In this document: positions 5,245 through 62,141 of the stretch, piece by piece
Numbering within the stretch: the stretch's first letter is position 1
How the letters are laid out: every line of letters begins with the position of its first letter
Made by a program: the position numbers and the translations under genes
The notes under the pieces: model-generated
What the model was told of the DNA's origin: nothing
Databases searched by the model: none
What the model saw: the letters and a program-made list of their open reading frames with translations, nothing else
NCBI GenBank assembly: GCA_965261125.1
Contig: CBDHCS010000006.1
Coordinates: 461,446-525,445, forward strand
DNA: 64,000 bases
From: Candidatus Poribacteria bacterium
GTDB taxonomy: Bacteria > Poribacteria > WGA-4E > WGA-3G
Direction: 5' to 3'

Positions 5245-5255
5245 AAAGGCTTCTT

Positions 5256-6335
5256 ATGATTTATTCTATTTTCGTTACTGCGGGACTTGAAAACATTGCT
5301 CGCCAAGAAATTAATGCGCGTTTTGGCGATACAGAACAGTTCAAAATTGTCATGCGGAAACCACAACGAATTGTCTTTCAATACTCAGGCAATCCGAAGG
5401 ATTTACTGTCGCTGCGGACAGCGGAGCATCTATTCGTCGTGATAAAACATATTCCGAAGATGACGCGTTCACGTAGTTCTTTAACTGCTATAAGGCATTC
5501 ACTCACTCGGTTCAACTTTGGTGAAACGTTGGCGTGTTGTCGGCAAGTAGGTCTCAGTATGCGGAGACGGATTCCGTTTCGTGTTATCAGTCGGATGTCG
5601 GGGTTCCGCAATTTTCAAAAACGTGATTTACATCAAGTTGTTGAAAGGGTCCTGATTGATCGTGGTTGGCAATTGACGCAATCAAGTTCTGGGTTGGATG
5701 TGTGGGTAGAGATGCATGGTCAGGATGCTTATATCAGTATCAAACTCTCAAAATCTGAGATGGCACAACGTTCATATAAGAAGGCACACGTGCCACAATC
5801 TATCAAACCGACTTTGGCATACAGCATGGTGTGGCTTTCGCAGCCGCACCCGAACGATCTTTTTTTGGATCCGATGTGTGGAGCGGGTACAATTCTGCTT
5901 GAGCGCGCTTTTGCTGGACGCTATCACTACCTAATCGGTGGAGATATTTCAAAAGACGCATTAAATGCTACGCAAAGAAATTTTGGTAGACAGCATCAAC
6001 CGCGTCAATTTTTTCATTGGGACGCACAATCCCTGCCTCTAAAACCGAATTCTGTTGACAAAATCGTCTGTAACCTACCGATAGTAGAAAGAAACGAAAA
6101 TGCTGGTCAACTTGCAAACCTTTACAGAAAATGTCTCCATCAATATGAAACTGTGCTTAAGCCGGATGGGAAAATGGTGCTGCTAACCTTGCAGCCTGCA
6201 GTTTTTCAAAAAATCCTTAAACAGCAAAAATCGTTGAAAACGAGGCAACGGGTTAGCGTAGATGTAGGTGGGAAACGCGGAAAGATTTTTGTTATCCGTA
6301 AGTCTATAGGCGAGGCACAAAAACCTCACCTATAA
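5256..6335 (+). CDS. class I SAM-dependent RNA methyltransferase (RlmL/Trm14-like, COG0116)
   Basis: Motif LDPMCGAGTILLE is the SAM-binding motif of THUMP-type N2-G RNA methylases. The ATG at 5256 lies 12 nt after the upstream stop and is preceded by aaagg. Confidence 0.65.
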   Translation: MIYSIFVTAGLENIARQEINARFGDTEQFKIVMRKPQRIVFQYSGNPKDLLSLRTAEHLFVVIKHIPKMTRSRSSLTAIRHSLTRFNFGETLACCRQVGLSMRRRIPFRVISRMSGFRNFQKRDLHQVVERVLIDRGWQLTQSSSGLDVWVEMHGQDAYISIKLSKSEMAQRSYKKAHVPQSIKPTLAYSMVWLSQPHPNDLFLDPMCGAGTILLERAFAGRYHYLIGGDISKDALNATQRNFGRQHQPRQFFHWDAQSLPLKPNSVDKIVCNLPIVERNENAGQLANLYRKCLHQYETVLKPDGKMVLLTLQPAVFQKILKQQKSLKTRQRVSVDVGGKRGKIFVIRKSIGEAQKPHL

Positions 6336-7726: not shown

Positions 7727-7888
7727 ATACTCAAGTTGCTACCTATAAGTTTTTAGACATGCAAACACCGTTTCTAATAGAGAATAGTTCGTTATAGGTG
7801 AAATATTGTAGAGCAAACTGTTAGTTTGCGGACGAATATGCACAATCTAACAGATTATGCTACATAAGTGGCAACTTAGGTTATACAT
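7727..7888. repeat. MITE family A copy (inverted orientation)
   Basis: TIRs actcaagttgctacctataag / cttatgtagccacttaggttata. Internal sequence is shared with other A copies. Confidence 0.6.
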
Positions 7889-8283: not shown

Positions 8284-11200
8284 CTAATACCGCGTAATCG
8301 TTTCATGCAGGTTCAAAATTACCCGCGCGACAGAAGTCCATGCTGCGAGTTCAATAGGTTCAACACCTTGTATTGCAGGTGATTCACCTAATGCGACTAA
8401 AGCCTTGGCAGCGTCAGGATTGTCGGTATATTCGGTTTTGTGTTTTTCTACCAACCCTGTCATAATTTCTAACTCTTTCGGTTGGGGCAGGCGTGATAAC
8501 GCTTGATGGTATGCCCAATTGATACGGTCTTCTGGGGTTTGCCCACCTTCTTTGATAATTCGTGCTGCAAATACGCGTGCTGTCTCAACGTAGGTTGGAT
8601 CATTAAGCAAGGTAAGCGCTTGCATAGGCGTGTTAGAAGTTGACCTTTCCGCGGTACACTCCTGCCTACTTGGGGCATCAAATGCCATCATGCTTGGGTG
8701 TAAGAAGGTTCGCTGCCAATGCGTATAAAGCCCTCGGCGGTACTGGCTTTCCCCCTTGTCATGTACATATTTGCGCTTGGGGAAGTTCAGATTTGAATAA
8801 TATCCCACAGGTTGATACGGTCTAACACTGGGTCCACCGATTTTAGGTACGAGAAGTCCGCTTAGCAATAAGGCGTTGTCACGCACAATTTCTGCGTCTA
8901 ATCGCCAGTGGGACTGTCGTGCAATTAGGCGATTGTAAGGGTCTTTTTCGCGCAGGACTTCATTTGATTTTGAAGACTGACGATAGGCGTTTGAGGAAAC
9001 AAGGAGTTTCACCATGTGTTTGACATTCCATCCACTTTCCATAAATTCCACCGCTAACCAATCAAGCAGCTCAGAATGTTCTGGTGGCTCACCTTGTGAA
9101 CCGAGGTCATCAAGCACGCGAGAGATACCTGTGCCGAAGTAGAGTGCCCAGAGGCGATTAACAAATGTCCGTGCAGTCAATGGGTTGTTTCTTGAGGCCA
9201 CCCATTTCGCCAAGTCAAGCCGTGTAGCGCGGCGATTTTTGATACCGAGATCTCCCATGAATTCCGGTATCATCGGTTCAACAATTTCTCCTGAATCGTC
9301 CAGCCAATTGCCTCTCGGTAAAATGCGGGTTGTTCGAGGTTGCACCGAAACGGTTGTTAAAGAATATGGACTCTTGGAATTAATCTCATTTTTACGTTTT
9401 TCGAGGTCGGTAATCTGGTTGCGGATTCCATCAAGTGCGGGGGCAATACCGCGGTAGTAATTGGCAATCTGTTTTCGTTGGTTTGTGGTTCTGACAAAAG
9501 CATCAACCTGAATTGCTTTTATGACAGCATCATCATGGGTATTTTTGGTTGCTATGCCGAGAGTAGTTGCGATACCAGCGATATCCCAATAAGCTTTACC
9601 ACCAAACTGTGTAAATGCCATTCCGTTCAGCACACTCCCCGCTTTCAATCCAACTACCGTCGGATCAACTTCAAGACGCACCCATTCGCCGAGGTTAGGG
9701 AGATCGCCCATCGGTCTGTGTGCTGGTGTGTCATTTCCTATTTCACCATAGGTAATTTTATCTTCACCCCAGAATGCCCGATGGTCCCAGTTTCCATCGT
9801 TCCACTGCAACATAACCGTTTTGGGTGGATTTTCGGGGTCTAACCAGACATAAGCAAAAAGTTTGTCACCCTCAGCGAGCGTAATTTTTCGGTTTGCGCC
9901 TCGGAAGGCATGCTGCACAAGTTGCTCAGGCGCTGCGGTCTGTACCCGTGAACGTTCTTTGCTGAAAACAGGTGCTTCATTTTTACCTACAAATTTCCAT
10001 GTACCTTCTGTTCTACCGCCATTTGATTGTGCATCGTCTATCCATGCGAAATCAGTATCTTCTGTTGAAGTGAGAAGTGAACGGATCTCCTCCTCCCATT
10101 TTGCTTGTTCTGCTTCTAATCCAGGCGACGACAATTCAAACACTTTGCGCAATCTTGCTAACTCAGTATCTATCTCTTGCAATTCATCCTGTTGTTCCTG
10201 TGACGGCAGCATGACAACGGGATCCCATTTACTCCCTCCGCCATACACACCAGGTCCCTGTATATCAGCAAAGAACGCAGCAAAACTGTAAAAATCTTTT
10301 GCGGTAAAAGGATCGAATTTGTGATCGTGGCATTGTGCGCAGCCGAGTGTCGCCCCTAACCAGACAGATGCAGTGGTCCTCACTCTGTCTGCTGCATAGA
10401 TTGCGAGGTATTCTTTTGCCTGCGCGCCACCTTCGGCAGTCGTTTGATTTAACCTGTTGTACCCCGATGCAACTCTCTGATCTGGTGATGCATTCGGCAA
10501 AAGGTCACCTGCAAGGTTTTCCAGCGTAAATTGATCGAATGGCATGTTGTCATTGAATGCCTTAATCACATAGTCTCGGTAAGGCCAAATGCTAACGTTC
10601 TCGTCCGAATGGTAGCCGCTTGTATCGGCATAACGAACCAGATCAAGCCAGTAAATTGCAAGCCTCTCACCGTACTGTGGTTTGGATAATAGGCGATTGA
10701 CCAACTCTTCATAAGCTTCTGGACGTTCATCTCGGACAAATTGATCAACTTCTGCGGGTGCCGGTAGTAAGCCAGTTAAGTCAAAATGTAGTCGACGGAT
10801 GAGCCTGCGTTTATCTGCTTCAGGAGATGGTTCAAGCCCTTCCGTTTCCAATTTACCGAGAATAAATTGGTCAATCGGATTTCGCACCCAATCGGACTTC
10901 TTTACTTCTGGCGGATCAACCCGTTTCAATGGGTTATATGCCCAATGTTCCTCCCACTCGGCACCTTCCGCAATCCATTGAATTAAAGTATCAATCTGTT
11001 CTTGTGTAGGTTGTCGATTTGAGGTTTGTGGCGGCATTCGCCTATCAATGTCTTCGTGTGTGATGCGCAGGACTAATTCACTGTTCTCAGGATCACCCGG
11101 GACAATAATTGGGTAACCGCTCGGTTCAGAAAAAGCTCCTTCCTTGGTGTCAAGCCGTAGCTCAGCTTGCCGTACCGCCGGATCGGGACCGTGGCACGCG

Positions 11201-22104: not shown

Positions 22105-22439
22105 TTTAGTATTTCCTTATGTCAATGCAGAGTTTGTTTACTTGGCATATACACTAATTAACCATATATGTTCCAAACATCTCGGACAGATAATCATGGG
22201 TAAATATTTTGTTGGCTAATTCCGCAATGGTATTTTAAAATTTCAACTTACGTTAAAAGCTAAAAAACGTCTAATGTTAATGTTTGTTACAAAAAGTTTT
22301 TGATAATATCTATAGTAAAACGGACGATTAATGAGGCACTTCTGTACCGCAAACTGTTAGTTTGCGGACTAATATGCACAAACTAACAGTTTGTGCTACA
22401 ACAGGAACTTATAAAAACGAAATAAAATGGAGGCAATTT

Positions 22440-23284: not shown

Positions 23285-25144
23285 TTATTCAAAAATCTGC
23301 TGCTGGCATAACTTATGGTAGAGTCCGCCTTTTTCAAATAACTTTGTATGGTTTCCGCTTTCCACAAGTTCACCATCATCAATAACCAAAATGTTGTCGG
23401 CACGCATTACCGTTGAGAGTCGATGAGCAATAATAAAACAGGTTCTACCCTCCATAAGGTTTGTTAAAGACTTTTGGATGATTGCTTCTGATTGTGTATC
23501 AAGTGCTGAAGTGGCTTCATCAAGGATTAGAATTGGTGCATCTTTCAGAATCGCGCGGGCAATAGAAATACGTTGCTGTTCGCCGCCTGAGAGATTGCTC
23601 CCTGCTTCTCCTATTGGGGTATCGTAGCCGTTAGGCATCTCGGAGATAAAACCGTGGGCGTTTGCTTTTTTTCCTGCTGCAATGATTGCTTCTCTTGTCG
23701 CATCGGGAGAACCGTATCTGATATTTTCAAAAACGGTGCCGTCAAATAGAAACGTCCCCTGTGGCACAAGGGCAATATTTTGCCTTAACGATGTTAACGT
23801 GACTTCATCAATAGGAAAATCATCAATCAGAATTGCGCCACTACCAACCGTATAGAACCGTAGAAGTAAGTTGAGTAATGTTGTCTTCCCGCTGCCGCTG
23901 GGACCGACAAGCGCGATAACCTCTCCCGGATCCGCTGTAAAACTGACATTTTTAATCACGGGTCGTTGTTGATACGCGAACGAGACATTTTGAAATTGGA
24001 CATTGCCTCTTACATTGGGAAGTACACGTTTTCCATCTGATTCACCACCAGTCTCTCTTTCTAAATCAAGCAGCGGGAAAATGCGTTCTGCGGAAGCGAG
24101 GCTTTGCTGTAATACGTTATTGACGCTGCCTATCGTCTTAATCGGTTTGTACATCAGTGCAACCATAAGAATATAACCTGCAAACCAGCCAATAGTTAGC
24201 TTGCCTTCTATAACGTTCCAACACCCAAGTCCCAAAACGGTTGCGGTTCCGATAGCCGCCATCCCTTCAATAAGTGGGGGGAGGAGTGATGCAAAGCGTG
24301 CGCGGCGAATTGCGGAGTTGTATTGGTCAGATGTGATCAATTGAAATCTTTTCATCTCAATTTTTTCAGCGGTAAAACTTTTTATTATATTGATTCCAGA
24401 GAGGGTTTCCTTGAGTTGTGCGTAGATGTCCGAGCTCCGTTGTTGGATTTCCGTGCTTGCTCTACGGACACGTGTTCCTATGCGTGAGATGGAATACGCA
24501 ATCATTGGAAGAACCAACATGGAGAAGATAGTCATTTGGATATTTTGGTAGAACATCACAGCGAGAAAAAAAGTGACCTTGATAATTGCACGCATTATTG
24601 ACGCAATTGCGGCGACAGCTTGCTGCAACATTCGCACATCATCGGTAACGCGTGTCATTACGTCGCCAGTGTGGTGTTCTGAGAGGGGGCCCAGTGGGGC
24701 TGAAACAATTTTTTCATATAGGTCATTTCGTATGCGAAAACTCAATTTATTTCCGACACGTTCCATTATAAAATCGCTGCCATAAACAAAAAAGCCTTTT
24801 ACAAAAACCAGGCCGAGTAATCCTATTAAAAGCCAAAAAAAGAAGCGGAACGCGTCCGCCGCACCTGTCAATGTAATTTCGAAACCTTCAAAGATGTTTT
24901 TTATGTTAAAAAATGGGATAGTAACAGGTTGAGTAGATTGACTGAAGCCCTCTAATTTTTTTAGTGAATCAAGCGTATCTGCTAAAATCTGAATTGGCCC
25001 ATAATCACAAACAGAAACGACTAAAGCACACCCCATCGCTAATATAATAGAGCCTTTGTAGGGAGTGAGGTAACGTAGGAACCGAAAAAGGAGTTTTTTG
25101 TGTTGCAAGGGGACAGCACCTTGACCAGAATGCCCAATTTTCAT
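23285..25144 (-). CDS. ABC transporter, fused permease/ATP-binding (MsbA-like exporter)
   Basis: Six N-terminal transmembrane helices followed by Walker A GPSGSGKTT, signature LSGGEQQRISIARAIL and Walker B ILILDEATSALD. The track start at 25180 overlaps MITE A; Met at 25144 (MKIGHS) is the likelier start. Confidence 0.8.
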   Translation of the reverse strand: MKIGHSGQGAVPLQHKKLLFRFLRYLTPYKGSIILAMGCALVVSVCDYGPIQILADTLDSLKKLEGFSQSTQPVTIPFFNIKNIFEGFEITLTGAADAFRFFFWLLIGLLGLVFVKGFFVYGSDFIMERVGNKLSFRIRNDLYEKIVSAPLGPLSEHHTGDVMTRVTDDVRMLQQAVAAIASIMRAIIKVTFFLAVMFYQNIQMTIFSMLVLPMIAYSISRIGTRVRRASTEIQQRSSDIYAQLKETLSGINIIKSFTAEKIEMKRFQLITSDQYNSAIRRARFASLLPPLIEGMAAIGTATVLGLGCWNVIEGKLTIGWFAGYILMVALMYKPIKTIGSVNNVLQQSLASAERIFPLLDLERETGGESDGKRVLPNVRGNVQFQNVSFAYQQRPVIKNVSFTADPGEVIALVGPSGSGKTTLLNLLLRFYTVGSGAILIDDFPIDEVTLTSLRQNIALVPQGTFLFDGTVFENIRYGSPDATREAIIAAGKKANAHGFISEMPNGYDTPIGEAGSNLSGGEQQRISIARAILKDAPILILDEATSALDTQSEAIIQKSLTNLMEGRTCFIIAHRLSTVMRADNILVIDDGELVESGNHTKLFEKGGLYHKLCQQQIFE

Positions 25145-25147
25145 ATT

Positions 25148-25311
25148 TATATAACCTAAGTTGCTACTTATGTAGCACAAACTGTCAGTTTGTGCATATT
25201 AGTCCGCAAACTGACAGTTCGCGCTACAATATTTCACCTATAACGAACTATTCTCTATAAAAAACGGTATTTGCATGTCTAAAAACTTATAGGTAGCAAC
25301 TTGAGTTTATA
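25148..25311. repeat. MITE family A copy
   Basis: TIRs tatataacctaagttgctac / gtagcaacttgagtttata. The interior has two 15-bp palindromes caaactgWcagtttg. Confidence 0.6.
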
Positions 25312-25344: not shown

Positions 25345-26310
25345 TTAATTATACACTTTTATGATTTGTTCAATAGATGTTTCAGGGTTGTATTGATATT
25401 GTCGCTTAATGTTAGCGAAATCCTTCTCAATTGGGTTCAACTTCGGAGCATACGGGGGTAAAAATAGCAAACTCACACCCGTCTCTGTAATCAACCTTGC
25501 TGTCTCTGAACTCTTGTGGAAGGACGCATTATCCATAATGACAACGTGTGTCTCATCAAGCAAAGGACATAACTGATGCTCTAACCACGTATTGAAGGCA
25601 AGCACATCAGAGGCACCTTGAAAAAGCACAAGGGCAGTAAAACTATCTCCGATGTGTGCTGCAATCAAAGTGGTAGATGCATACCGATGCAAACCCGATA
25701 TTTTATCTTGGATACAGACACCCTTCGGAGCATAAGCATACCGACGCAGTTGTGGAGTCGGAAAACCGCTTTCATCAACATAAACAGGCGTTTTACCCCC
25801 GACTTGAATTTCACGATCAAACGCATCAAGATAGGTTTGGCGTTTTTCTGGACACTGTTCTTTATACGTTAGCGTCTTTTTTTCGCGTGATGTTGAGTTT
25901 CCCGAGGGCATACTAGTGCTTAGTCAAGTGTTAATTGATAGGTCTTGAAAGGAATCGGGAATCGGAGTTCCCTCCTACCATAGGCAGTCTATCGGTAGGA
26001 GCGATCTCCGAATCGCGACCTACAATAATATGTTGACAAAGCACTAGATACAGTTCTTGGAAACGCCGAAATGTGTAGCCCGTTCCATCTGTGTGTGGTC
26101 GGGAAAATCAGCAACATGTTGCTTCAGGGCATCGTAGTCGAGCCGATGAGGACCTCGGGGTCCTGGCTTTTTACAACTCAAAGGTGCTTCAGCAGCTAAT
26201 CAGTTATAGATGCTGGTCCGAGAGACGTTATAGGTGCGTGAGGCTTCCGCTTTACTACCATTATGAACAAAATCAAGCACGCGTTTACGTAAATCTGATG
26301 AATAACTCAT
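25345..26310 (-). pseudogene. IS630-family transposase, disrupted (orfA nonsense + MITE insertion before the DDE domain)
   Basis: orfA (26310 downward) reads MSYSSDLRKRVLDFVHNGSKAEASRTYNVSRTSIYN-TGA-LAAEAPLSCKKPGPRGP. The expected Trp codon TGG is TGA. A MITE-B copy at 25913-26052 separates it from orfB (25345..25911), which carries the DDE domain ...VYVDESGF... Confidence 0.7.
25913..26052. repeat. MITE family B copy inserted inside the IS630 transposase gene
   Basis: 28-bp TIRs ctagtgcttagtcaagtgttaattgata / the reverse complement of caataatatgttgacaaagcactag. The core gggaatcggagttccctcctac ... gtaggagcgatctccgaatcgcgac is an imperfect long palindrome. It is flanked by ATA on both sides. 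Confidence 0.6.
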
Positions 26311-39433: not shown

Positions 39434-40315
39434 ATGGATTTGATTATGATTATGGAGATGTTTCCTGATCAAGCGGCGTGTATCGCATATTTAGAGCAGC
39501 TGCGGTGGCAGGGATCCCCTGAATGTCCCCATTGTGAGTCTACTCATATCAACAAGCGCAATGAAACGGCTACAGGGCGTATCGGGCGTTGGAATTGCCA
39601 CGATTGTCATAGCACTTTCAAGGTTACGTCTGGCACAATGTTTGTTGGAACGCAGATCGCACTTCAGAAATGGTTTCTGGCGATCGCGTTGATGGCAAAC
39701 GCAAAGAAAAGTCTCTCAAGTTGTCAACTTGCACGCGATTTAGGATTGAAACAAAGAACAGCCTGGCGAATAATGATGTGTATACGTGCTGAAATGGGTA
39801 AGGATAACGTGTTGCTACAAGGTATCGTTGAAGCCGATGAAACCTATATCGGTGGCAGCAGTAGAAAAGATTACGACAAAGAGGAAGGTGAACCCCGTAA
39901 GCGTGGGCGTGGCACTGCGAAAGATGCCGTTATGGGTGCTGTAGCACGTGGCGGGAAAGTCGTAGCAGAACTTGTTTCGGATATTGCTGGGGAGACAATC
40001 GCTGACTTCATTATGAGGGTTGTCAACACCGAAGACGCTAAACTGTATACCGACCAGTTCAAAGGATACACCGAAATCGGTAAAGAGATGGAACATCAAA
40101 CAATCAACCGGAGTGAACAGTGGGTAGCTGATGGGATACATACCCATACGATGGAAGGGTTCTGGTCTTTCGTTAAACGTGCAGGGTATGGCTCACATCA
40201 TCATTATTCAACAGGTTACACACCACTGTATCTCGCAGAGGCGTGCTACAAATACAACTACAGAGGAACGAACATCTTTGCCAAGTTTCTCACAGAGAGT
40301 ATGGAGTCCGGGTAA
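39434..40315 (+). mobile_element. IS1595-family (ISXO2-like) transposase gene
   Basis: N-terminal zinc ribbon CPHCES...CHDCH. The DDE core VEADETYIGG is characteristic of IS1595 transposases. Upstream, a long hairpin (39349-39420) overlaps the RBS, and there is a 9-bp perfect palindrome attagggggttgtcaccccctaat. Confidence 0.75.
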
Positions 40316-40409: not shown

Positions 40410-40979
40410 GTGGATATTTTAATGATTCCAGATGATGTTTATGTGCACAAAACAGTAGAAGGCGATGTTGAGGCATTTAACGAATTGGTCAATCGCCATC
40501 ATACCAAAATTTATGGGCTTGCATACCGAATGCTCGGCAATGCCGAGGATGCCGAGGATGCCACGCAAGAGACATTTTTAGAGGCTTATAAGTCAATAAA
40601 AACGTTTCGATTCCAGTCGCAATTTGGAACGTGGCTATATAAGGTCGGTCTAAACACTTGCAATCAATATATTCGCAAAAGCAAAACCCGTAACAGAATG
40701 TTAGATGCTTACACGGAAGAGACAGCGTCTCACGGCTTGGCTGAGGAGCAGGAAGTTCCTGATCGGCTGGTAATTAAGGCTGAACAACGCGAGGTTGTTC
40801 AAGCTGCTATTGATCGTTTGCCGCCGAAGCAACGTGAGGTTGTGACGCTCTATTATATGCAGCAACTCAAATACAAAGAGATTGCTGAGATCCTTAATTG
40901 TTCTCTCGGAACTGTCGCCTCACGGTTAAATAAAGCAATACAGAATCTCAAAACGAAGTTGAAAAAATACTATTTTTGA
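40410..40979 (+). CDS. ECF-subfamily RNA polymerase sigma factor (sigma-70 regions 2 and 4)
   Basis: Region 2 ...AEDATQETFLEAYKSIKTFRF...FGTWLYKVGLN and region 4 LPPKQREVVTLYYMQQLKYKEIAEILNCSLGTVASRLNKA. Confidence 0.8.
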   Translation: MDILMIPDDVYVHKTVEGDVEAFNELVNRHHTKIYGLAYRMLGNAEDAEDATQETFLEAYKSIKTFRFQSQFGTWLYKVGLNTCNQYIRKSKTRNRMLDAYTEETASHGLAEEQEVPDRLVIKAEQREVVQAAIDRLPPKQREVVTLYYMQQLKYKEIAEILNCSLGTVASRLNKAIQNLKTKLKKYYF

Positions 40980-40997: not shown

Positions 40998-41717
40998 GTG
41001 AATAAATTCTTACCCTATAAAGCGAGGATGGTTAAAATGAATTGTGAACAGACTCGTGAAAACTTGGTTTTACACCGTCAGGATCCCTTGTTAAAAGGGG
41101 CGGAGCGGCGCGATTTTTTACAACATCTGCGTGGTTGCAAGGCATGCCAAGTCGAATATGAAGGATTATGGCATACTGCAACGGTGCTCGGTAGTCTTGA
41201 TGCTCCGGAACCGCCCCCCGAATTACTGGGAAATATCCAACGTCAAATACGAGAAGTCCATAGGAGAGATAGCACTGCCTTCTTCGCGGCTCCGATCACC
41301 TGGCTTTTCGGTAAATTTAAGTTAGATATATCTCCGTTGTTTGTGAATTGTGTTGCGTTGCTTTGCTATCTGATCGCATCCGTCTTCTTGGTGAAATTTG
41401 CATTCTTTACAAAGGCACCGGAACAAAATTTCGGTTTGACCGCATTTGAAGAGACACGACTCCGAAATGCACGTATTTCTCCATCACCTTGGGCATCCCT
41501 GAAACACGGTAGCGCGCAGGTTGAGAAGCCATTTCCTACAGAAGCACTGCAGGAGAGTCATGTGAACCCTATCAGTCCATTTGTTGGCAGTGAGTCAGCA
41601 GTTATGTGGCATGCCCGCGCTATTAATAAAGTCACAGAAGATGTTGATGGACATTTTGCGAAAACAGCAAGCGAAAAACTCGCCCTATTTTGGAATGACA
41701 TCAAAACAGATCTGTGA
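40998..41717 (+). CDS. putative anti-sigma factor (zf-HC2 type) with a TM segment
   Basis: H-x3-C-x2-C motif HLRGCKACQVEYEGLWH and one hydrophobic helix (VNCVALLCYLIASVFLVKFAFF). It lies immediately downstream of the ECF sigma gene. Confidence 0.6.
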   Translation: MNKFLPYKARMVKMNCEQTRENLVLHRQDPLLKGAERRDFLQHLRGCKACQVEYEGLWHTATVLGSLDAPEPPPELLGNIQRQIREVHRRDSTAFFAAPITWLFGKFKLDISPLFVNCVALLCYLIASVFLVKFAFFTKAPEQNFGLTAFEETRLRNARISPSPWASLKHGSAQVEKPFPTEALQESHVNPISPFVGSESAVMWHARAINKVTEDVDGHFAKTASEKLALFWNDIKTDL

Positions 41718-41769: not shown

Positions 41770-41902
41770 CAGGACTTACGCATTCCCCCCGCTTGCGGGG
41801 GGATAAAGGGGGGTAAAACCTTGAAAAGGACAAAAAATCAGGGTTAATATCCGTGAACGGACAAAATTCTAAACAGGGATACTTGAATTTGCGTAAGTCC
41901 TG
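41770..41902. repeat. MITE family C copy (133 bp), TSD-like TAAGTAA flanks
   Basis: TIRs caggacttacgca / tgcgtaagtcctg. The interior ccccccgcttgcgggggg hairpin is about 97% identical to the copy at 61727-61859. Confidence 0.65.
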
Positions 41903-41907
41903 TAAGT

Positions 41908-41938
41908 AAGAGGCACAATTGGTTGTGCCTCTTTTTTC
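41908..41938 (+). terminator. rho-independent terminator
   Basis: gaggcacaa-ttgg-ttgtgcctc is a perfect 9-bp stem followed by TTTTTT. It sits downstream of the anti-sigma gene and the MITE. Confidence 0.6.
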
Positions 41939-42064
41939 TTTGAAAGAATGTAAACTTTTATAGCAGCACCCTTCCAACCTAAAAAAGTTGACCGACAGTT
42001 TTTTTTGCGGTAAAATATATACGCACATTCATAGAATCAAACCTACAAAATATCGGACAAAAAA

Positions 42065-43141
42065 TTGACACAACCTTTACTTAAAGTTTCTAATTTGAAA
42101 ACAGTATTCCATACAGGTGGCGGCGTTGTAAATGCTGTAAACGATGTCAGCTTTTCAGTTGAACGCGGCAAAACGGTCGGTATTGTCGGAGAAAGCGGTT
42201 GTGGAAAAAGCATCACTGGGCTTTCTCTTCTCCAACTTGTGCCGAATCCGGGTAGGATCGAAGCGGGTGAGATTCTGTTCTATCGTGATGACGTAAATGA
42301 ACTTTTAGATATAACGCAAGTCCCACCGCGAAGTGAGTTGATGCGTCAGATTCGTGGTAACGAAATTGCTATTATTTTTCAGGAACCGATGACATCGCTT
42401 AATCCTGTTTATACTGTTGGTGATCAAATTGCTGAGGCGATTGTGTTACACCAAGAAGGTGAGCGCTCGTCTCTTGCGCGTTTTGGTTTACAAACAACAC
42501 CGAAATGGGCACGCGAACGCGCTATTGAGATGCTCTCACGCGTCGGGATCCCCGCACCTGAGCAACGTATTGATGAATATCCACACCAACTCTCCGGGGG
42601 GATGCGGCAACGCGTTATGATTGCGATGGCACTCTGTTGTGCACCTGCACTTCTTATTGCAGACGAACCGACTACGGCACTTGATGTTACGATTCAGGCA
42701 CAAGTGCTTGCGCTCATGCAGGAACTGCAAGCGGAAATTGGAATGGCAATTATGTTGATTACACACGACTTAGGGGTTATCGCTGACATGGCTGACAAAG
42801 TGGTTGTTATGTATGCCGGACGCGTTGTTGAAAAAGGAAGCGTTGAAGACATCTTTTATAATCCTTTGCATCCTTATACGCGTGGCTTGCTCAACTCTAT
42901 TCCAACACTCGGTGATAGCCAGCAAAAAACGCTTCCCTCTATTCCGGGAACAGTCCCTCACCCGTTGGCACTTCCTCCCGGATGTTCTTTTCAGCCGCGT
43001 TGTGCTGAACGAATGCCGACTTGTGAACAAATGCCTGAACTTAACACAATTGATGCCTCAAAAAATAGGACTGATAGGAACGAAAGGCACGCTGTGAGAT
43101 GTTGGCTTTGTGAGGAAAAAACCGATGTCAAAACTGCTTAA
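42065..43141 (+). CDS. oligopeptide/dipeptide ABC transporter ATP-binding protein (OppD/DppD-like)
   Basis: Walker A GESGCGKS, signature [12 protein letters not shown], Walker [13 protein letters not shown] and a C-terminal oligopeptide-type extension. Apparent TTG start. Confidence 0.8.
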
Positions 43142-44126
43142 GGTCAAAGACCTCCGAAAATACTTTCCGATACGAAAAGGAATTCTCCGACGGACCATCG
43201 GACATGTAAAAGCGGTGGACGGCATTAGTTTTGACGTTGAACGTGGCGAAACCCTTGGACTGGTTGGTGAAAGTGGTTGTGGCAAGACGACTGCGAGTCG
43301 GTGTCTCCTCCGATTGATCTCACCTACGGGTGGCAGTTTTACTTTCGGTGATGAACAAGTTGATTTAGCAAAGTTAACGCCTCAACAGATGCGCCCTTTT
43401 CGTAGGCGTATCCAGATGGTCTTTCAAGACCCACAATCATCTCTTAACCCACGAAAAACGGTGGGTGATATTGTTGGTGAACCGCTACGTGTTAATCGGA
43501 TTGAAAAAAGAAATGAACTGCAGGATCAAATTGTTGAACTTTTGGAATCTGTTGGGTTAAAACCGCAGGACATGCGGCGTTACCCGCATGCCTTTAGTGG
43601 TGGACAACGCCAACGTATTGGCATTGCACGGGCGTTAGCACTTAACCCCGAGTTAGTCGTAGCAGATGAACCGGTGTCGGCACTGGATGTATCCGTGCAG
43701 GCACAAATCCTCAACCTTCTGGTGGAATTGCGGGAGAAATTCCAACTTTCCTATATCTTTATCGCACATGATTTAAGCGTTGTTAAACATATCAGTGACC
43801 GCGTAGCCGTTATGTATCTTGGCAAGATCGTAGAGATTAGCGATGCAAAAACACTTTATCAATCGCCGAAACATCCTTATACAGAGGCGCTGATATCCGC
43901 TGTGCCGTTGCCGGATCCGAAAGTGCAACGTGAACGTGAACTAATTCGTCTTGAAGGAGATGTTCCTGATCCATCTCAGCCGCCAACCGGGTGTCATTTT
44001 CATCCGAGGTGCCGCTATGCAACAGATATTTGTAAACAGGAAAAACCAGAACTTCGTGAGATTACACCCGGTATCAAAGTTGCGTGTCATTTGAGTGAAA
44101 CGTTGGAATTACAAGGAGTTTCGTGA
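43125..44126 (+). CDS. oligopeptide/dipeptide ABC transporter ATP-binding protein (OppF/DppF-like)
   Basis: Walker [10 protein letters not shown], signature [15 protein letters not shown], Walker [13 protein letters not shown] and a C-terminal CxxC tail. Start [10 protein letters not shown]. Confidence 0.8.
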
Positions 44127-45073
44127 TGCCAAAATTAGATCAAATAACACCAGAAGAACTTGCATCTTGCAGGAAGCAGCTTGAGCGCCGTTGGAAAAGT
44201 CGAAAAGTTGATGCGGCGTTGCTGGAACGGGCATGGCATGTCGTTTATGAGATTGCGACACTACTCTATGACGAATTCGGGGCAACACAAGTTGCTGTTT
44301 TCGGGTCGCTTGCGGAACCGATCAATTTCACAAAGTCATCGGACATTGATATTGCGGTATGGGGACTCTCTGATAAGATACATTCATCTGCATATTGGAA
44401 AGTTCAGGATATTGATACGGGGTTCAAAATAGATTTGATTAATTTTGATATGATGAAAGGGTTTTTCCGTGAAAGAGTTAAACAGCATGCGATTCCTATA
44501 AGGAGAGGGGAACATCCCACATTATGGAAAACACAGTACGAACATCTAAACAAACAAGTTTTTCCAATCATGGAAGAAGAAGTATATGAAATGAACCGAA
44601 AAAAACTGACACAGCGTATCAACGATGAACTTGTAAAGATAGAGGATACTCTCACCAGAATCCGGAGAGGGTTAGAAAAAATTGAAATAGTGCCTGATGA
44701 TATCACAGAATTCATTGAAAATACGATTGCGACAGACCTTGTCGATATCTATAGTGGAATTGAACGGATTTTTGAGCGAATTGCCAACGAGGTTGATGGA
44801 CACTTACCGAGAGGGAGTAGATGGCATAAGAACCTACTTGAACAGATGACAAAACAACGCCCCGAAAGACCGCCTGTGATTTCTGATAATACGTTTCTCC
44901 AATTAGGGAAACTTTTGGAGTTTCGCCATAAAGTAACCAACATTTATGGGAGAGAACTGAAGTATGATAATACATTGGTGCATGCAGAAACAATCCATGA
45001 ATTGTTTGCAGCAGTTTCACAGGATTTTAATATCTTCACTGATTCACTTGTGCAGCATGAGGAGGACGTTTGA
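44126..45073 (+). CDS. nucleotidyltransferase (Pol-beta/MNT-type) fused to a C-terminal HEPN-like domain, paralog 1
   Basis: NTase motif FGSLAEPINFTKSSDIDIAVWG (GS...DxD). C-terminal R-x4-H (RGSRWH) and FRHKVTNIY motifs fit a HEPN-type helical domain. 4-bp overlap with the upstream ATPase gene. Confidence 0.6.
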   Translation: MPKLDQITPEELASCRKQLERRWKSRKVDAALLERAWHVVYEIATLLYDEFGATQVAVFGSLAEPINFTKSSDIDIAVWGLSDKIHSSAYWKVQDIDTGFKIDLINFDMMKGFFRERVKQHAIPIRRGEHPTLWKTQYEHLNKQVFPIMEEEVYEMNRKKLTQRINDELVKIEDTLTRIRRGLEKIEIVPDDITEFIENTIATDLVDIYSGIERIFERIANEVDGHLPRGSRWHKNLLEQMTKQRPERPPVISDNTFLQLGKLLEFRHKVTNIYGRELKYDNTLVHAETIHELFAAVSQDFNIFTDSLVQHEEDV

Positions 45074-45074
45074 A

Positions 45075-46043
45075 ATGCAACAGGCAGTAAACAGACAGCG
45101 AACAGCTAAAGAGATGTCACCAGAAGAACTTATGTCTTGTAGGAAGCAGCTTGAACGCCGATGGAAGAACCGAAAAGTTGATGAGGCGTTGTTAGAACGA
45201 GCCTGGTCCGTCGTTTATGAGATTGCGACACTACTTTATGATGAGTTTGGTGCGACACGGGTTGCTGTTTTCGGATCGCTGGCGGAGCCGATCAATTTCA
45301 CAAAGTCATCAGATATTGATATTGCGGTGTGGGGACTCTCTGATAAGACACATTCAAAAGCAAACCTCAAAATATGGGATATTGATACGGGATTCAAAAT
45401 AGATCTGATCAATTTTGATATGACAAAGGGACTTTTTCAAGAAAGAATCCTGCAAAAAGCGATACCTATAAAGAAAGGAGAACGCCCCACATTATGGAAG
45501 GCACTTTATCAGCATCTAAACCGCCAAGTTTTTCCTATCGTGGCGGAAGAAATATACGAAATGAATAGAAAGAAATTCACCCAACGTGTCAACGATGAAT
45601 GCATAAAAATTGAATCTACTGTTGATGCAATTGTAAAAGCTTTGGAAGATATTCAGGTTGTTCCTGCTAACTACAAACAATATATAGAGGAAACAATTGC
45701 CAATAAACTTGCCGATGTTTATAGAGGTATAGAGCGTATTTTTGAACGGATTGCTAATGAAGTAGATGCACATCTGTCGCGCGGAAGTAGGGGGCATAAA
45801 AACTTGCTTGAACAGATGACAAGACAACGCCCTGAAAGACCGCCTGTGATTTCTCAGGAAACGTTTCAACTTTTAGAAGCGCTCTTAGAATTTCGTCACA
45901 AGGTTAACAATATCTATGCGGATGAACTAATTTATGAAAGGACAGAAGAGCATGCAAAGAACATCGAAAAACTGTTCCGGAGTTTCTCTGATGACCTCAA
46001 AATGTTTACCGATTTTCTTTCACAGCCTAAGGAAGATGATTGA
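45075..46043 (+). CDS. nucleotidyltransferase-HEPN fusion, paralog 2 (tandem duplicate)
   Basis: About 75% identical to paralog 1 across the NTase motif (FGSLAEPINFTKSSDIDIAVWG) and the C-terminal RGSRGH / FRHKVNNIY motifs. ATG at 45075 (MQQAVNRQ...). Confidence 0.6.
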   Translation: MQQAVNRQRTAKEMSPEELMSCRKQLERRWKNRKVDEALLERAWSVVYEIATLLYDEFGATRVAVFGSLAEPINFTKSSDIDIAVWGLSDKTHSKANLKIWDIDTGFKIDLINFDMTKGLFQERILQKAIPIKKGERPTLWKALYQHLNRQVFPIVAEEIYEMNRKKFTQRVNDECIKIESTVDAIVKALEDIQVVPANYKQYIEETIANKLADVYRGIERIFERIANEVDAHLSRGSRGHKNLLEQMTRQRPERPPVISQETFQLLEALLEFRHKVNNIYADELIYERTEEHAKNIEKLFRSFSDDLKMFTDFLSQPKEDD

Positions 46044-46054
46044 AAGGAACAAAC

Positions 46055-46882
46055 ATGTCAACACACACAGACCTCGGTTTTTTTGCGACAGATGTTTCAT
46101 TTGAAGATAGCGCTGCAATCGTAACAGGTTCCAGTCGAGGCATTGGCCGCGCAATTGCTATTGAATTGGCACGCCAAGGTGCCGATGTGCTTATCAATTA
46201 CAATCAGAATCGCGATGCAGCCGAAGCGGTAAAACATGAAGTAGAATCGCTTGGTAGCAAGGCGGTAACTATTCAAGCAGACATCAGCGATTTAGACGCA
46301 CACGCGAAACTGCTCAAAACAGCGCATGACGCATTTGGAAAGGTAAATATCCTTATTAACAATGCTGGTATTACCCGTATTGCAGACATTCTTGAGGAGA
46401 CACCTGAACAGTTTGATCTACTGCTGAACACAAATCTCAAAGCGCCTCATTTCCTCACGCAGCGCGTTGCAAATTACATGGTGGAGAACGAGATTCGCGG
46501 ATGTATTATCTACACCCTTTCCATTTCAGATACAATGGCATCCGACAACCGCACTGCCTATTGTATCTCAAAAGCCGGATTAGAGATGAGTATGCGTGCC
46601 TATGCTGGAAGGTTAGCGATGCACGGTATCAAGGTAAATGGAATCGCTGCAGGTGTGATTGATACGGACCTGTCGCGTGTCCGTATTCCGGATTACGAAG
46701 AGGCAGCAGAGAAGGGTTATATCTTTATGGTACGCCCTGGCACACCTGAAGATGTTGCACATGCGACTGTTGCTGCGATGCGGCTTTACGATACAGGGAT
46801 TGTCCTGCCTGCTTCTGGCGGTGTGATGACACCGTTGCTGAATCTCAGAACTATGGTGGAATTAGAGATGAACAAATCCTAA
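46055..46882 (+). CDS. SDR family oxidoreductase (short-chain dehydrogenase/reductase)
   Basis: TGSSRGIGRAIA cofactor motif, NNAG, and an S...YxxxK catalytic pattern (YCISK). ATG at 46055 after aaagga. Confidence 0.8.
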   Translation: MSTHTDLGFFATDVSFEDSAAIVTGSSRGIGRAIAIELARQGADVLINYNQNRDAAEAVKHEVESLGSKAVTIQADISDLDAHAKLLKTAHDAFGKVNILINNAGITRIADILEETPEQFDLLLNTNLKAPHFLTQRVANYMVENEIRGCIIYTLSISDTMASDNRTAYCISKAGLEMSMRAYAGRLAMHGIKVNGIAAGVIDTDLSRVRIPDYEEAAEKGYIFMVRPGTPEDVAHATVAAMRLYDTGIVLPASGGVMTPLLNLRTMVELEMNKS

Positions 46883-46944
46883 ACTTCGCCCGAATCTGGT
46901 ATATTTCCCTTATACCCAAATCCCGATATCTTGTATAATGCTTT

Positions 46945-47085
46945 ATCAAGTGCTAATTGATGGGTCTTGAAAGGAGTCGGGAATCGGAGTTCCCTCCTAC
47001 CATAAGCAGTCCATCGTTAGGAGCGATCTCCGAATCGCGGCGAATGCCACCCGTAGTCGGGAATCGGAGTTCCCTCGGACAAATC
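46945..47085. repeat. MITE family B copy (with partial internal duplication)
   Basis: Core gggaatcggagttccctcctaccataagcagtccatcgttaggagcgatctccgaatcgcg plus a repeated gtcgggaatcggagttccctc segment. Confidence 0.55.
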
Positions 47086-49689: not shown

Positions 49690-49930
49690 TCAAGGTATTG
49701 TTTTCAGTATATTATATAACGTATGTTGATGTGATACTCACGACGGCTGAAGCCGTGTGCTTCTTTTGCACACAACTCTCCTTTGTGATTCCTGCTTCCG
49801 TCTCTCGTGCCTCTATCCTGAACTGCGTGAGGTCTTACTTGGACTCCACAGGCGTAACTTTCCGTCTATCCGACGGTAGTGGGTTTTAGGTTTATTGCAG
49901 CGTTGCTATCTCTGTCTATAGATATACCAC
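49690..49930 (-). ncRNA. putative TnpB-associated omega-RNA / IS right-end region (hairpin-rich)
   Basis: On the minus strand the tnpB 3' end plus downstream about 170 nt contain several stable hairpins (ccgtc-tatcc-gacgg; gtgtgc-ttctttt-gcacac; cacgacggc-tgaa-gccgtgtg). This is the expected location of a TnpB guide-RNA scaffold. Confidence 0.3.
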
Positions 49931-50942
49931 ATTGACCGCAATGATACATTCTTTCTGATAGCAATAACTCTTTTTTCTTATGTCCACAACCACTGCAGGT
50001 CTTACTACTCGCATAAAACTGGTCTGCCTCTATGATAGGGATTCCACGCATCTCTGCCTTTGTCTTAAGTTTTGAAAGAAACCCACCTAACGCACTATCA
50101 CTCAATGCCTTCGCTAATCTCCTATTCTTTAGCAGGTTGGTAACTTTTAGTGTTTCTATACCGATAGCCGCTGCGTTATTGACAATCTCTGTTGATGCTT
50201 TGTGGTGTGCATCATTCCTTATACAAGCGACACGATAATAGATGCGTGCGATTTTCTGTTTCTGCTTATACCAATTAGCACTTCTAAACTTTTTACGGGC
50301 TAAAGCACGATTAGCACGTTTGAGTTTTCGTTCAGAGTGTTTGAGCGGTCTCGGATTATCGTATTTGATACCATTACTCAAAGTTGCTAATGCGTTGATA
50401 CCTACATCTATACCGATAACAGGGTGTGTTGAGGTGTCAACAACTTCGGTGTCCTCTGTCTCTACGGTAATAGATGCAAACCAACGATGCGCCGTCCTTG
50501 AGATGGTAACCTTGATAATCTTGCCAACAAAACGTAATGACTCAAACGTTTTCACCCAACCGATTTTAGGGAGTTTGATCTTCTTGCCTTCAACCTGAAC
50601 AGATTGCTCGTCTGTGGTGTAAGATTGTTTATATCCACGCCCTTTGAACTTCGGAAACTTCGCACGCTTAGATACCCAATTCGCAGCTGCTTGCCCTAAA
50701 TTTCTGATAGCATATAAGGCAGCACGCTGATCTTGGGAATATGTCCAATCATAGCTCTTTTTTCTCTTATTAAAGTTAACGTTGAGGGTTCGCCACGATT
50801 GGAAATTATCACGATCTAAACCTACCTTGAAATCCGATAACGCAGCATTATATGCAAAACGGGCATATCCACATTGACTACTAAACCAGCGTTTCTGTTT
50901 ACAAGTCGGATCTAATGTTATTTTGTGTGTTTTATAAGACAT
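49866..50942 (-). CDS. tnpB: TnpB (IS605/IS1341-family OrfB, RuvC-like RNA-guided nuclease family)
   Basis: N-terminus MSYKTHKITLDPTCKQKRWFSSQCGYARFAYNAAL. RuvC-I VIGIDVGIN, RuvC-II AAAIGIETLKV, and a zinc finger CSGCGH...CGQCG followed by RuvC-III DRDSNAAINL. No tnpA is adjacent. Confidence 0.8.
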   Translation of the reverse strand: MSYKTHKITLDPTCKQKRWFSSQCGYARFAYNAALSDFKVGLDRDNFQSWRTLNVNFNKRKKSYDWTYSQDQRAALYAIRNLGQAAANWVSKRAKFPKFKGRGYKQSYTTDEQSVQVEGKKIKLPKIGWVKTFESLRFVGKIIKVTISRTAHRWFASITVETEDTEVVDTSTHPVIGIDVGINALATLSNGIKYDNPRPLKHSERKLKRANRALARKKFRSANWYKQKQKIARIYYRVACIRNDAHHKASTEIVNNAAAIGIETLKVTNLLKNRRLAKALSDSALGGFLSKLKTKAEMRGIPIIEADQFYASSKTCSGCGHKKKELLLSERMYHCGQCGISIDRDSNAAINLKPTTVG

Positions 50943-61726: not shown

Positions 61727-61859
61727 CAGGACTTACGCATTCCCCCCGCTTGCGGGGGGATAAAGGGGGGTAAAACCTTGAAAAGGACAAAAAATCAGGG
61801 TTAATATCCGTGAAAGGACAAAATTCTAAACAGGGATACTTGAATTTGCGTAAGTCCTG
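61727..61859. repeat. MITE family C copy (133 bp)
   Basis: Near-identical to 41770-41902. TIRs caggacttacgca / tgcgtaagtcctg, with TTAAT-like flanks. Confidence 0.65.
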
Positions 61860-61978
61860 TTAATAATTAATGTCTATGAATTATGGACTTAACTTGTATG
61901 TAACATTTGCAATAGAAGTAACGTATTTTTTTAAACAATCGTAATTTTCCAGGTATCTATTACGAGAATTTTTCCATT

Positions 61979-62141
61979 ATTATAACCTAAGTTGCCACTT
62001 ATGTAGCATAATCTGTTAGATTGTGCATCTTAGTCCGCAAACTAACAGTTTGCTCTACAATATTTCACCTATAAAGAACTATTCTCTATAAAAAACGGTG
62101 TCTGTGTATTTAAATCTTATAGGTAGCAATTTGGGTTATTA
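61979..62141. repeat. MITE family A copy
   Basis: TIRs tataacctaagttgccac / gtagcaatttgggttat. The interior is shared with the 25148 copy. Confidence 0.6.

Follow-up and report, generated by a model that had tools for sequence, protein, structure and literature searches.

Why two tandem genes that each join a nucleotidyltransferase (NTase) and a HEPN domain in a single polypeptide should lie directly behind the ATPase genes of a peptide transporter is the question raised by a locus in the genome of a Candidatus Poribacteria bacterium. The two genes, here termed A and B, are located in a stretch of 64,000 nucleotides (the window; contig CBDHCS010000006.1 of assembly GCA_965261125.1, forward-strand positions 461,446–525,445), to which all coordinates refer unless another locus is named. 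Modules of a minimal nucleotidyltransferase (MNT) and a HEPN protein are regarded as some of the most abundant toxin–antitoxin systems, and the host organisms of the genes studied here are uncultured. The original prediction, which had been made from the sequence alone, regarded A and B as paralogous MNT–HEPN fusions of an uncommon architecture and suggested a self-regulating toxin or defence module. The analyses described below confirm the fusion. The explanation that accounts best for the locus, which we consider to have about an even chance of being correct, is a single-chain module derived from a type VII (MntA/HepT-like) toxin–antitoxin system, which by analogy would modify itself and which has been retained by its host. 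The following features of the two genes are referred to throughout:

44126–45073, plus strand: gene A, coding for a fused MNT–HEPN (HepT-like_2) protein of 315 amino acids; ATG start, with an alternative GTG at 44123
44303–44350, plus strand: NTase motif of gene A, G60-S61-x11-D73-x-D75 (sequence and family alignment)
44432–44434, plus strand: third carboxylate of gene A, D103 (sequence and family alignment)
44573–45049, plus strand: helical HEPN (HepT-like_2) domain of gene A, approximately residues 150–308 (PF20797 at residues 202–308, AlphaFold, and Foldseek)
44810–44827, plus strand: RGSRWH of gene A (R229–H234), not a conserved R-x4-H site
44924–44947, plus strand: HEPN helix motif of gene A, R267-H268-K-V-T-N272-I-Y274 (R-x4-N-x-Y; sequence)
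45075–46043, plus strand: gene B, coding for a protein of 322 amino acids, paralog of A
45273–45320, plus strand: NTase motif of gene B, G67-S68-x11-D80-x-D82 (sequence and alignment)
45894–45917, plus strand: HEPN helix motif of gene B, R274-H275-K-V-N-N279-I-Y281 (sequence and alignment)

Both genes exist as open reading frames (ORFs) on the plus strand, and the identity of about 75% that had been given for the tandem paralogs is close enough to the measured values of 71% on the protein level (309 residues aligned without gaps; BLASTP E 8e-168) and 73.9% on the DNA level. The product of gene A is 100% identical to a protein already on record (P0001). The ATG of gene B has GAGGAGGA 7 nt upstream, and a longer version of this ORF, which begins at 44964 and overlaps gene A, is not a likely start.

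The minimal Pol-beta-type NTase motif predicted for both genes was recovered as an intact GS…DxD…D set within an MNT fold. The sequence FGSLAEPINFTKSSDIDIAVWG was found at residues 59–80 of A and 66–87 of B. Protein A carries the MNT pattern hG[GS]-x9-13-Dh[DE]h, with D103 as the third acidic residue on a later strand, and in B the motif is formed by G67-S68 and D80-I-D82. Residues G60, S61, D73, and D75 are invariant in an alignment of 40 family sequences, in which D103 is conserved in at least 90%, and of the 106 copies compared among Poribacteria, 105 have GSDDD complete, the sole exception being a truncated ORF. The Pfam model Polbeta (PF18765; cut-off 26.9 bits) matched the N-terminal part of B with 32.2 bits and that of A, just under the cut-off, with 26.0 bits. 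When the family profile was searched against solved structures it matched 1wot (7e-9) and MntA (5yep_A; 2e-6) by sequence, and the NTase half alone was matched. In an AlphaFold model of A (pLDDT 86.7, pTM 0.78; calculated from the 40-sequence alignment), strands 55–59, 74–79, and 102–106 and their flanking helices form an α/β NTase fold, and the top Foldseek matches of this domain in the PDB were the MNT antitoxins HI0073 (1no5), 8xeo, 1wot, and MntA (6m6w/7bxo).

The C-terminal half was assigned to the HEPN domains by profile and by predicted fold. Pfam HepT-like_2 (PF20797; cut-off 27 bits) matched A with 96.3 and B with 89.3 bits over model positions 2–109 of 110. In the model of A, a poorly ordered segment at residues ~140–150 is followed by a bundle of long helices (150–186, 191–224, 233–240, 254–272, and 283–307), for which Foldseek retrieved HepT (5yep_C, 7bxo_G), the HEPN protein of A. 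flos-aquae (7ae8, 7ae2), and HI0074 (1jog) from the PDB with probabilities of 0.98–1.0 and target TM-scores of 0.57–0.74; across all MNT and HepT/HEPN matches the probabilities were ~1.0 and the target TM-scores ~0.6–0.77. The profile search detected no sequence similarity between the HEPN half and HepT proteins of solved structure, and a single-sequence search of solved structures returned coiled-coil noise only. Neither protein matched DUF86/HepT (PF01934), the classical HEPN, NTase_sub_bind, or KNTase_C models of Pfam at E ≤ 1. Of the profile searches proposed with the original prediction, the one for HEPN thus succeeded strongly with HepT-like_2 but not with DUF86/HepT, and NTP_transf_2 reached only 16–17 bits against its cut-off of 21. 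The concern raised there that the C-terminal half might not be HEPN but a KNTase-like substrate-binding domain was not borne out, and profile matches and predicted fold together support the joining of MNT and HEPN in one chain.

Two strings in the HEPN half, RGSRWH (RGSRGH in B) and FRHKV(T/N)NIY, had been singled out as motifs, and both exist as described. FRHKVTNIY occupies the canonical HEPN helix position in the same register as the R-x4-H-x-Y of HepT, and its earlier description as a DUF86-like motif with an altered residue was essentially right (R267-x4-N272-x-Y274). In the 106 Poribacteria copies, R267 is conserved in 105, N272 in 99, and H268 and Y274 in all. RGSRWH was rejected as a catalytic R-x4-H motif of HEPN because its first Arg, R229, is kept in only 57 copies (54%; T in 34, Q in 5) and is variable in the wider family as well; the conserved part of this string is W233-H234 only, with H234 present in 105 copies. 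Residues Y209, E213, D224, W233-H234, R248, R267-H268, N272, and Y274 are kept in essentially all copies, and each of the 15 scored motif positions in at least 99. In the wider family the consensus of the helix is F-R-H-x-x-R-[N/S/H]-x-Y with an invariant His right after the first Arg, and the motifs with an Arg at +4 that were matched in 150 cluster representatives carried N in 51, S in 18, and H in 18 cases. The predicted structure has the expected HEPN fold, but the canonical R-x4-6-H site that active HEPN domains have at the start of the last core helix is missing, as the canonical helix contains R267…N272 in A and R274…N279 in B; RGSRWH matches the R-x4-H pattern, though with a poorly conserved Arg. 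One may conjecture that H268 or H234 stands in for the canonical His.

Proteins of this layout are more widespread than the description as an uncommon architecture, which was overstated, had implied. One search returned 1,130 homologs, the top 120 of which all had the same length and architecture and, where named, belonged to Candidatus Poribacteria. An exhaustive search gave 2,100 clusters (50%-identity representatives), among which were fused forms down to 24–30% identity and many stand-alone HEPN proteins of ~160 amino acids. Fused relatives are also found in other taxa; the named ones come from cyanobacteria, and others stem from metagenomes. Moreover, occasional MNT–HEPN fusions have already been noted (Anantharaman et al., 2013; PMC3710099), and one fused MNT–HEPN toxin–antitoxin, FhepTA, has been characterised experimentally (Yao et al., NAR 2026; PMC13000451), so that the architecture is of an already known kind.

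The split relatives reveal how the fused chain is composed. Genes for the stand-alone HEPN proteins follow small upstream genes with 4-nt overlaps, and a cyanobacterial chromosome (CP021983; locus L082, 5001–7570) carries one fused NTase–HepT-like_2 gene and, in tandem behind it, two split Polbeta and HepT-like_2 pairs whose stop and start codons overlap. The split MNT2 of this array aligns to residues 7–125 and HEPN2 to residues 165–311 of A, which therefore consists of an MNT domain, a linker of ~40 residues (126–164), and a HEPN domain; a two-gene MNT→HEPN module from this family is collinear with each of the fused proteins. These split modules share the HEPN subfamily and its motif (FRHIVRNLY, FRHCFRHAY) with A at 33–34% identity, but differ from A and B in being two genes with a 4-nt overlap and in having no link to a peptide transporter.

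What is new is the operon context, since the fusion occupies the same peptide-transporter site in ~75 Poribacteria species. In the window, the following features flank genes A and B:

40410–40979, plus strand: extracytoplasmic function (ECF)-type sigma factor gene (Pfam Sigma70_r2, Sigma70_r4_2, Sigma70_ECF)
40998–41717, plus strand: putative anti-sigma factor gene (no Pfam match; role deduced from its place behind the ECF sigma gene)
41908–41933, plus strand: terminator-like hairpin (11 pairs and a T run) 3' of the anti-sigma gene and 5' of OppD (consensus scan, pattern match only)
41988–42016, plus strand: sigma-70-like promoter candidate, TTGACC-17-TAAAAT, ~50 nt 5' of OppD (consensus scan 10/12, pattern match only)
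42065–43141, plus strand: OppD/DppD-like ATP-binding cassette (ABC) ATPase (Pfam ABC_tran and oligo_HPY; NCBIfam OppD/DppD subfamily-level matches under the equivalog cut-offs)
43110–44126, plus strand: OppF/DppF-like ABC ATPase (Pfam ABC_tran and oligo_HPY; NCBIfam PRK11308, dipeptide ABC ATPase, with 421 bits against a cut-off of 408)
46055–46882, plus strand: short-chain dehydrogenase/reductase (SDR; Pfam adh_short, adh_short_C2)

With ABC_tran and oligo_HPY domains in both, the two genes upstream of A are OppD/OppF-like ATPases as predicted. The genes are also tightly packed behind them, but not with the 4-bp overlap that had been reported: the OppF stop and the ATG of A share 1 nt (TGATG), which would become 4 nt only if GTG were the start, and A and B are spaced by 1 nt. 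Between gene B and the SDR gene lie 11 nt if the latter begins with the ATG at 46055, but a start at the TTG at 46040 would make the two overlap by 4 nt. No terminator-like site was found between OppF, A, B, and the SDR gene in the consensus scan, which is a pattern match only.

When each species was represented by a single genome, a locus scan yielded 78 loci, which all belong to Poribacteria; in ~75 of them the genes are arranged as ECF sigma–anti-sigma–OppD–OppF–[fusion ×1–3]–(SBP_bac_5–OppB–OppC)–SDR. The ECF sigma gene has the same position in nearly all related loci, the anti-sigma candidate has a syntenic homolog with 40–89% identity, and the SDR gene is syntenic with 85–96% identity. 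Of 69 loci, 47 have the start of the fusion gene at a distance of -4 to +3 nt from the OppF stop, and a GGAG lies within the 3' end of OppF. In 41 loci, whose fusion proteins are 48–66% identical to A, genes for a binding protein (SBP_bac_5) and the permeases OppB and OppC directly follow the fusion gene; the clade closest to the window is without binding-protein and permease genes at this site, and tblastn detected no homologs of them in the window. The claim that the ATPases lack permease and binding-protein genes thus holds for this lineage and the window but not for the 41 related loci, and because these carry the genes after the fusion, the "orphan" ATPases result from a derived loss or relocation. 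That they represent an ancestral design was rejected, as the relatives hold a complete transporter. A metagenome scan seeded with OppF returned only non-Poribacteria relatives and served as outgroup. None of the 80 metagenomic loci with the closest OppF homologs outside the Poribacteria (56–64% identity) contains a fusion gene, and some of them show the order OppD-OppF-SBP-OppB-OppC. An insert between OppF and the binding-protein gene is thus peculiar to Poribacteria.

Several repeats and mobile elements were observed around the cluster. A 140-nt direct repeat (41770–41909 and 61727–61866; 98% identical), which may represent a small element of mobile or regulatory nature, has one copy between the anti-sigma gene and OppD, where it ends at the hairpin and precedes the promoter-like site. 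One copy of a 104-nt repeat (46936–47039 and 25914–26017; 91% identical) lies directly 3' of the SDR gene. A family of intergenic repeats of 65–150 nt (369–444, 7801–7865, 22337–22401, 25136–25283, and 61967–62114) contains internal palindromes (GCAAACTGTTAGTTTGC-like) and resembles repetitive extragenic palindromes or miniature inverted-repeat transposable elements. An IS1595-family transposase gene (39434–40315, plus strand) is located directly 5' of the ECF sigma gene and an IS605 OrfB/TnpB gene (Cas12f-like TNB domain; 49866–50942, minus strand) ~3 kb 3' of the cluster; relatives carry other genes at both positions. In a close relative (L001, 3043–3590), a classical pair of MNT (95 amino acids) and DUF86 HepT (87 amino acids) is found ~1 kb 5' of the ECF sigma gene of the cluster.

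Another way to look at the function of A and B is by the history of the duplication. The number of fusion copies per locus is one in 56, two in 19, and three in 4 of 79 loci. In a neighbour-joining tree the A/B duplication is placed at the base of the clade without binding-protein genes, with the B orthologs as a separate clade, and many species within the A/B clade retain A alone or B alone. The duplication thus appears to be old, and either copy can apparently be lost. Since either copy has been lost in many species, and 56 of the 79 loci are single-copy, an obligate A/B heterodimer is unlikely and was rejected; A and B appear to be individually dispensable. Both are under purifying selection, with dN/dS ratios of 0.12–0.15 among the orthologs of A and of B as compared to 0.06–0.15 for OppD, 0.04–0.06 for OppF, and 0.02–0.05 for the SDR. 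Between A and B, dN is 0.20 and dS 1.34, and a recent duplication or wholesale gene conversion was rejected on these values, dS being lower only in the NTase core (0.5–0.8 at A residues 31–105, as compared to >1 or saturated elsewhere). One stretch of 300 nt is 84% identical. The uneven dS could reflect constraint on the codon level or an old, partial gene conversion.

A third type of fused paralog occurs alongside the A and B types in 4 loci of close relatives (L004, L011, L021, and L005, where it lies between them at 8950–9891). Its identity to A is 53–55%, its helix contains a canonical R-x4-H (RHVFAHLY), and it clusters with paralogs from other sites of Poribacteria genomes, which are found in variable contexts near genes for IS605 TnpB, PemK, HNH, and Ro60/vWA proteins. 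In one such region (L088, 3027–10491), a fused paralog stands beside a Ro60/TROVE–vWA gene, an IS605 TnpB gene, and a stand-alone HepT-like_2 gene (191 amino acids) that is followed by a VWA_CoxE gene; these HEPN, Ro60, and vWA genes may together form an RNA-related system of their own. Besides the copy behind OppF, L012 contains a further A-type copy (~4493–5440) that lies 3' of the anti-sigma gene and 5' of OppD. As a whole, the family behaves like an expanded toxin–antitoxin-type family of which one locus has become fixed.

How the preferred reading, a self-modifying single-chain module of toxin–antitoxin descent, would work can be outlined by analogy to HepT/MntA and FhepTA, the latter according to its description in PMC13000451. 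MntA oligoAMPylates a Tyr of HepT that adjoins the RNase motif R-x4-H-x-Y, and FhepTA auto-oligoAMPylates its Tyr while its MNT domain blocks HEPN dimerisation; the isolated HEPN domain of FhepTA is toxic, and the protein, which is encoded on mobile elements, contains a redox switch based on cysteines (PMC13000451). In A and B, the N-terminal NTase would correspondingly AMPylate the invariant Tyr, Y274 of A and Y281 of B, at the expense of ATP, and the modified Tyr would hold the HEPN activity off. A drop in ATP, or damage to or degradation of the NTase, would then allow the HEPN domain to dimerise and act, presumably as an RNase, and growth would slow. As the locus is passed on vertically and is tied to, and presumably co-transcribed with, genes for nutrient uptake, it would be a host-retained (domesticated) switch for stress or energy state rather than a selfish, mobile addiction module; the patchy, mobile distribution typical of toxin–antitoxin loci is not seen here, ~75 of the 78 loci being syntenic. 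The originally proposed self-regulating toxin or defence module is plausible, but must be set against the phylum-wide vertical conservation, which is unlike the usual behaviour of mobile toxin–antitoxin or defence genes.

The comparison with known systems shows close likeness in layout. FhepTA (SO_1440 of Shewanella oneidensis) is likewise one polypeptide, with the MNT (GS-x10/11-DxD) at the N terminus and HEPN at the C terminus, has its Tyr two residues past the catalytic position of the HEPN helix, and has a close two-gene form in other genomes. It differs in length (276 amino acids, as compared to 315 in A and 322 in B), in its location on prophages and genomic islands, whereas the A/B locus is chromosomal and found phylum-wide in a transporter gene cluster, and in its HEPN domain, which is of the DUF86 type with a canonical RφxxxH, whereas that of A and B is HepT-like_2 with R-H-x-x-x-N-x-Y. 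With the HepT/MntA systems (SO_3166/SO_3165 of S. oneidensis, HEPN/MNT of Aphanizomenon flos-aquae, and HEPN-MNT of Legionella), A and B share both folds with MNT first, the intact NTase motif, and the R…x4…x-Y register of the helix, in which Y274, kept in 106 of 106 copies, takes the position of the AMPylation site. HepT and MntA are two proteins, however, and A and B one chain, in which the His of HepT is replaced by Asn.

A number of observations weigh against the preferred reading. Asn occupies the position of the canonical catalytic His in 99 of the 106 copies, with His itself in 5, and in A and B the family motif has Thr or Asn in place of its second Arg; because of these two replacements, RNase activity is not assured. 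The MntA_antitoxin equivalog of NCBIfam (NF047752) was matched with 27.6 and 31.6 bits and thus below its cut-off of 60. The linker of A is ~40 residues long as compared to 3–8 hydrophobic residues in FhepTA, and the two regulatory Cys of the FhepTA HEPN domain have no counterpart in A or B (A contains no Cys past residue 15). Toxin–antitoxin genes are not typically fixed at a single locus throughout a phylum. HEPN domains fused to MNT have been argued to be usually without catalytic residues and to have a substrate-binding or regulatory role (Anantharaman et al., 2013; PMC3710099), and a literature search on PF20797/HepT-like_2 found no relevant paper and no biochemistry on any member.

The main rival regards A and B as fully domesticated NTases, whose HEPN domain would be no nuclease but a domain that binds the substrate or is regulatory, as in KNTase or GlnE, and whose target would be tied to the transporter cluster, be it a transporter or regulatory protein or an imported peptide-like compound. 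We consider this possible but doubtful. An origin from domesticated MNT–HEPN toxin–antitoxins has been proposed for enzymes of the KNTase/LinB/GlnE type, and MNT-fused HEPN domains have been argued to be typically inactive derivatives of such systems (PMC3710099). The Asn at the canonical His position fits this explanation, as do the phylum-wide position between OppF and the binding-protein gene, with the tight junctions kept, and the purifying selection on OppD/OppF together with the fusion even in the clade without binding-protein and permease genes. However, the Asn or Ser is a trait of the whole HepT-like_2 family that is shared by two-gene members, and not a decay specific to the fusion, and R267, H268, Y274, H234, and R248 are as strictly conserved as the NTase residues, which fits an active or modification site. 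Other fused paralogs in Poribacteria occur in variable, mobile-looking contexts without a transporter, and the closest OppF homologs outside the Poribacteria have no fusion gene, indicating that the transporter does not need it. While A and B resemble KNTase, LinB, and GlnE in combining an NTase with a helical C-terminal domain of the HEPN clan, they differ in the missing profile match to the C-terminal domains of these enzymes, the weak fold match, and the conserved HEPN helix residues and Tyr.

A further proposal is speculative and in our estimation unlikely: the domesticated single-chain MNT–HEPN protein would be a dedicated, ATP-sensing regulator of the peptide-uptake operon in Poribacteria. 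It would cut mRNAs, those of the operon itself or others, or else modify part of the transporter by AMPylation, and would use a non-canonical HEPN site (R-H dyad plus Asn), a catalytic variant common to the whole HepT-like_2 family.

The defence and antibiotic-NTase readings are less likely than the domesticated NTase. An anti-phage abortive-infection sensor, a single-chain toxin–antitoxin of the CapRel type in which a phage cue would free the HEPN nuclease, appears quite improbable. The MNT/HEPN lineage and fused toxin–antitoxins have been tied to defence in the literature (PMC13000451), and the family is expanded in Poribacteria, with 1–3 copies at the locus and paralogs near PemK, HNH, IS605 TnpB, and Ro60/vWA genes. 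Yet the PADLOC matches to PDC-S09, a candidate system, are weak (E 1e-7 to 1e-5) and confined to the NTase domain, no PHROG was matched, and the locus lies outside defence islands in a syntenic and vertically inherited position between housekeeping-type genes, with dN/dS near that of its neighbours and no diversifying evolution seen. An antibiotic or small-molecule NTase of the KNTase/ANT(4')/LinB type that would inactivate an imported compound is hardly credible, since, despite the layout shared with KNTase and LinB, the appearance of LinB (3jyy) in the Foldseek list, and the adjoining importer genes, no KNTase_C, NTase_sub_bind, or aminoglycoside-NT profile was matched at E ≤ 1 and no NCBIfam resistance family at all, LinB scored weakly (probability 0.51, TM-score 0.22–0.25, as compared to ~1.0 for HepT/HEPN and MNT), and the conserved R-H…N…Y helix is a HEPN active-site helix and no drug-binding feature.

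The fixation of a fused copy beside nutrient-uptake ATPases across a phylum of sponge symbionts points to an apparent retention of a toxin–antitoxin-derived module by its hosts, and the locus is a concrete place for testing the idea of "domestication" put forward by Anantharaman et al. (2013). For the HepT-like_2 family as a whole, the R-H-x-x-R-[N/S/H]-x-Y helix is a candidate catalytic variant of HEPN domains that mostly lack the canonical His.

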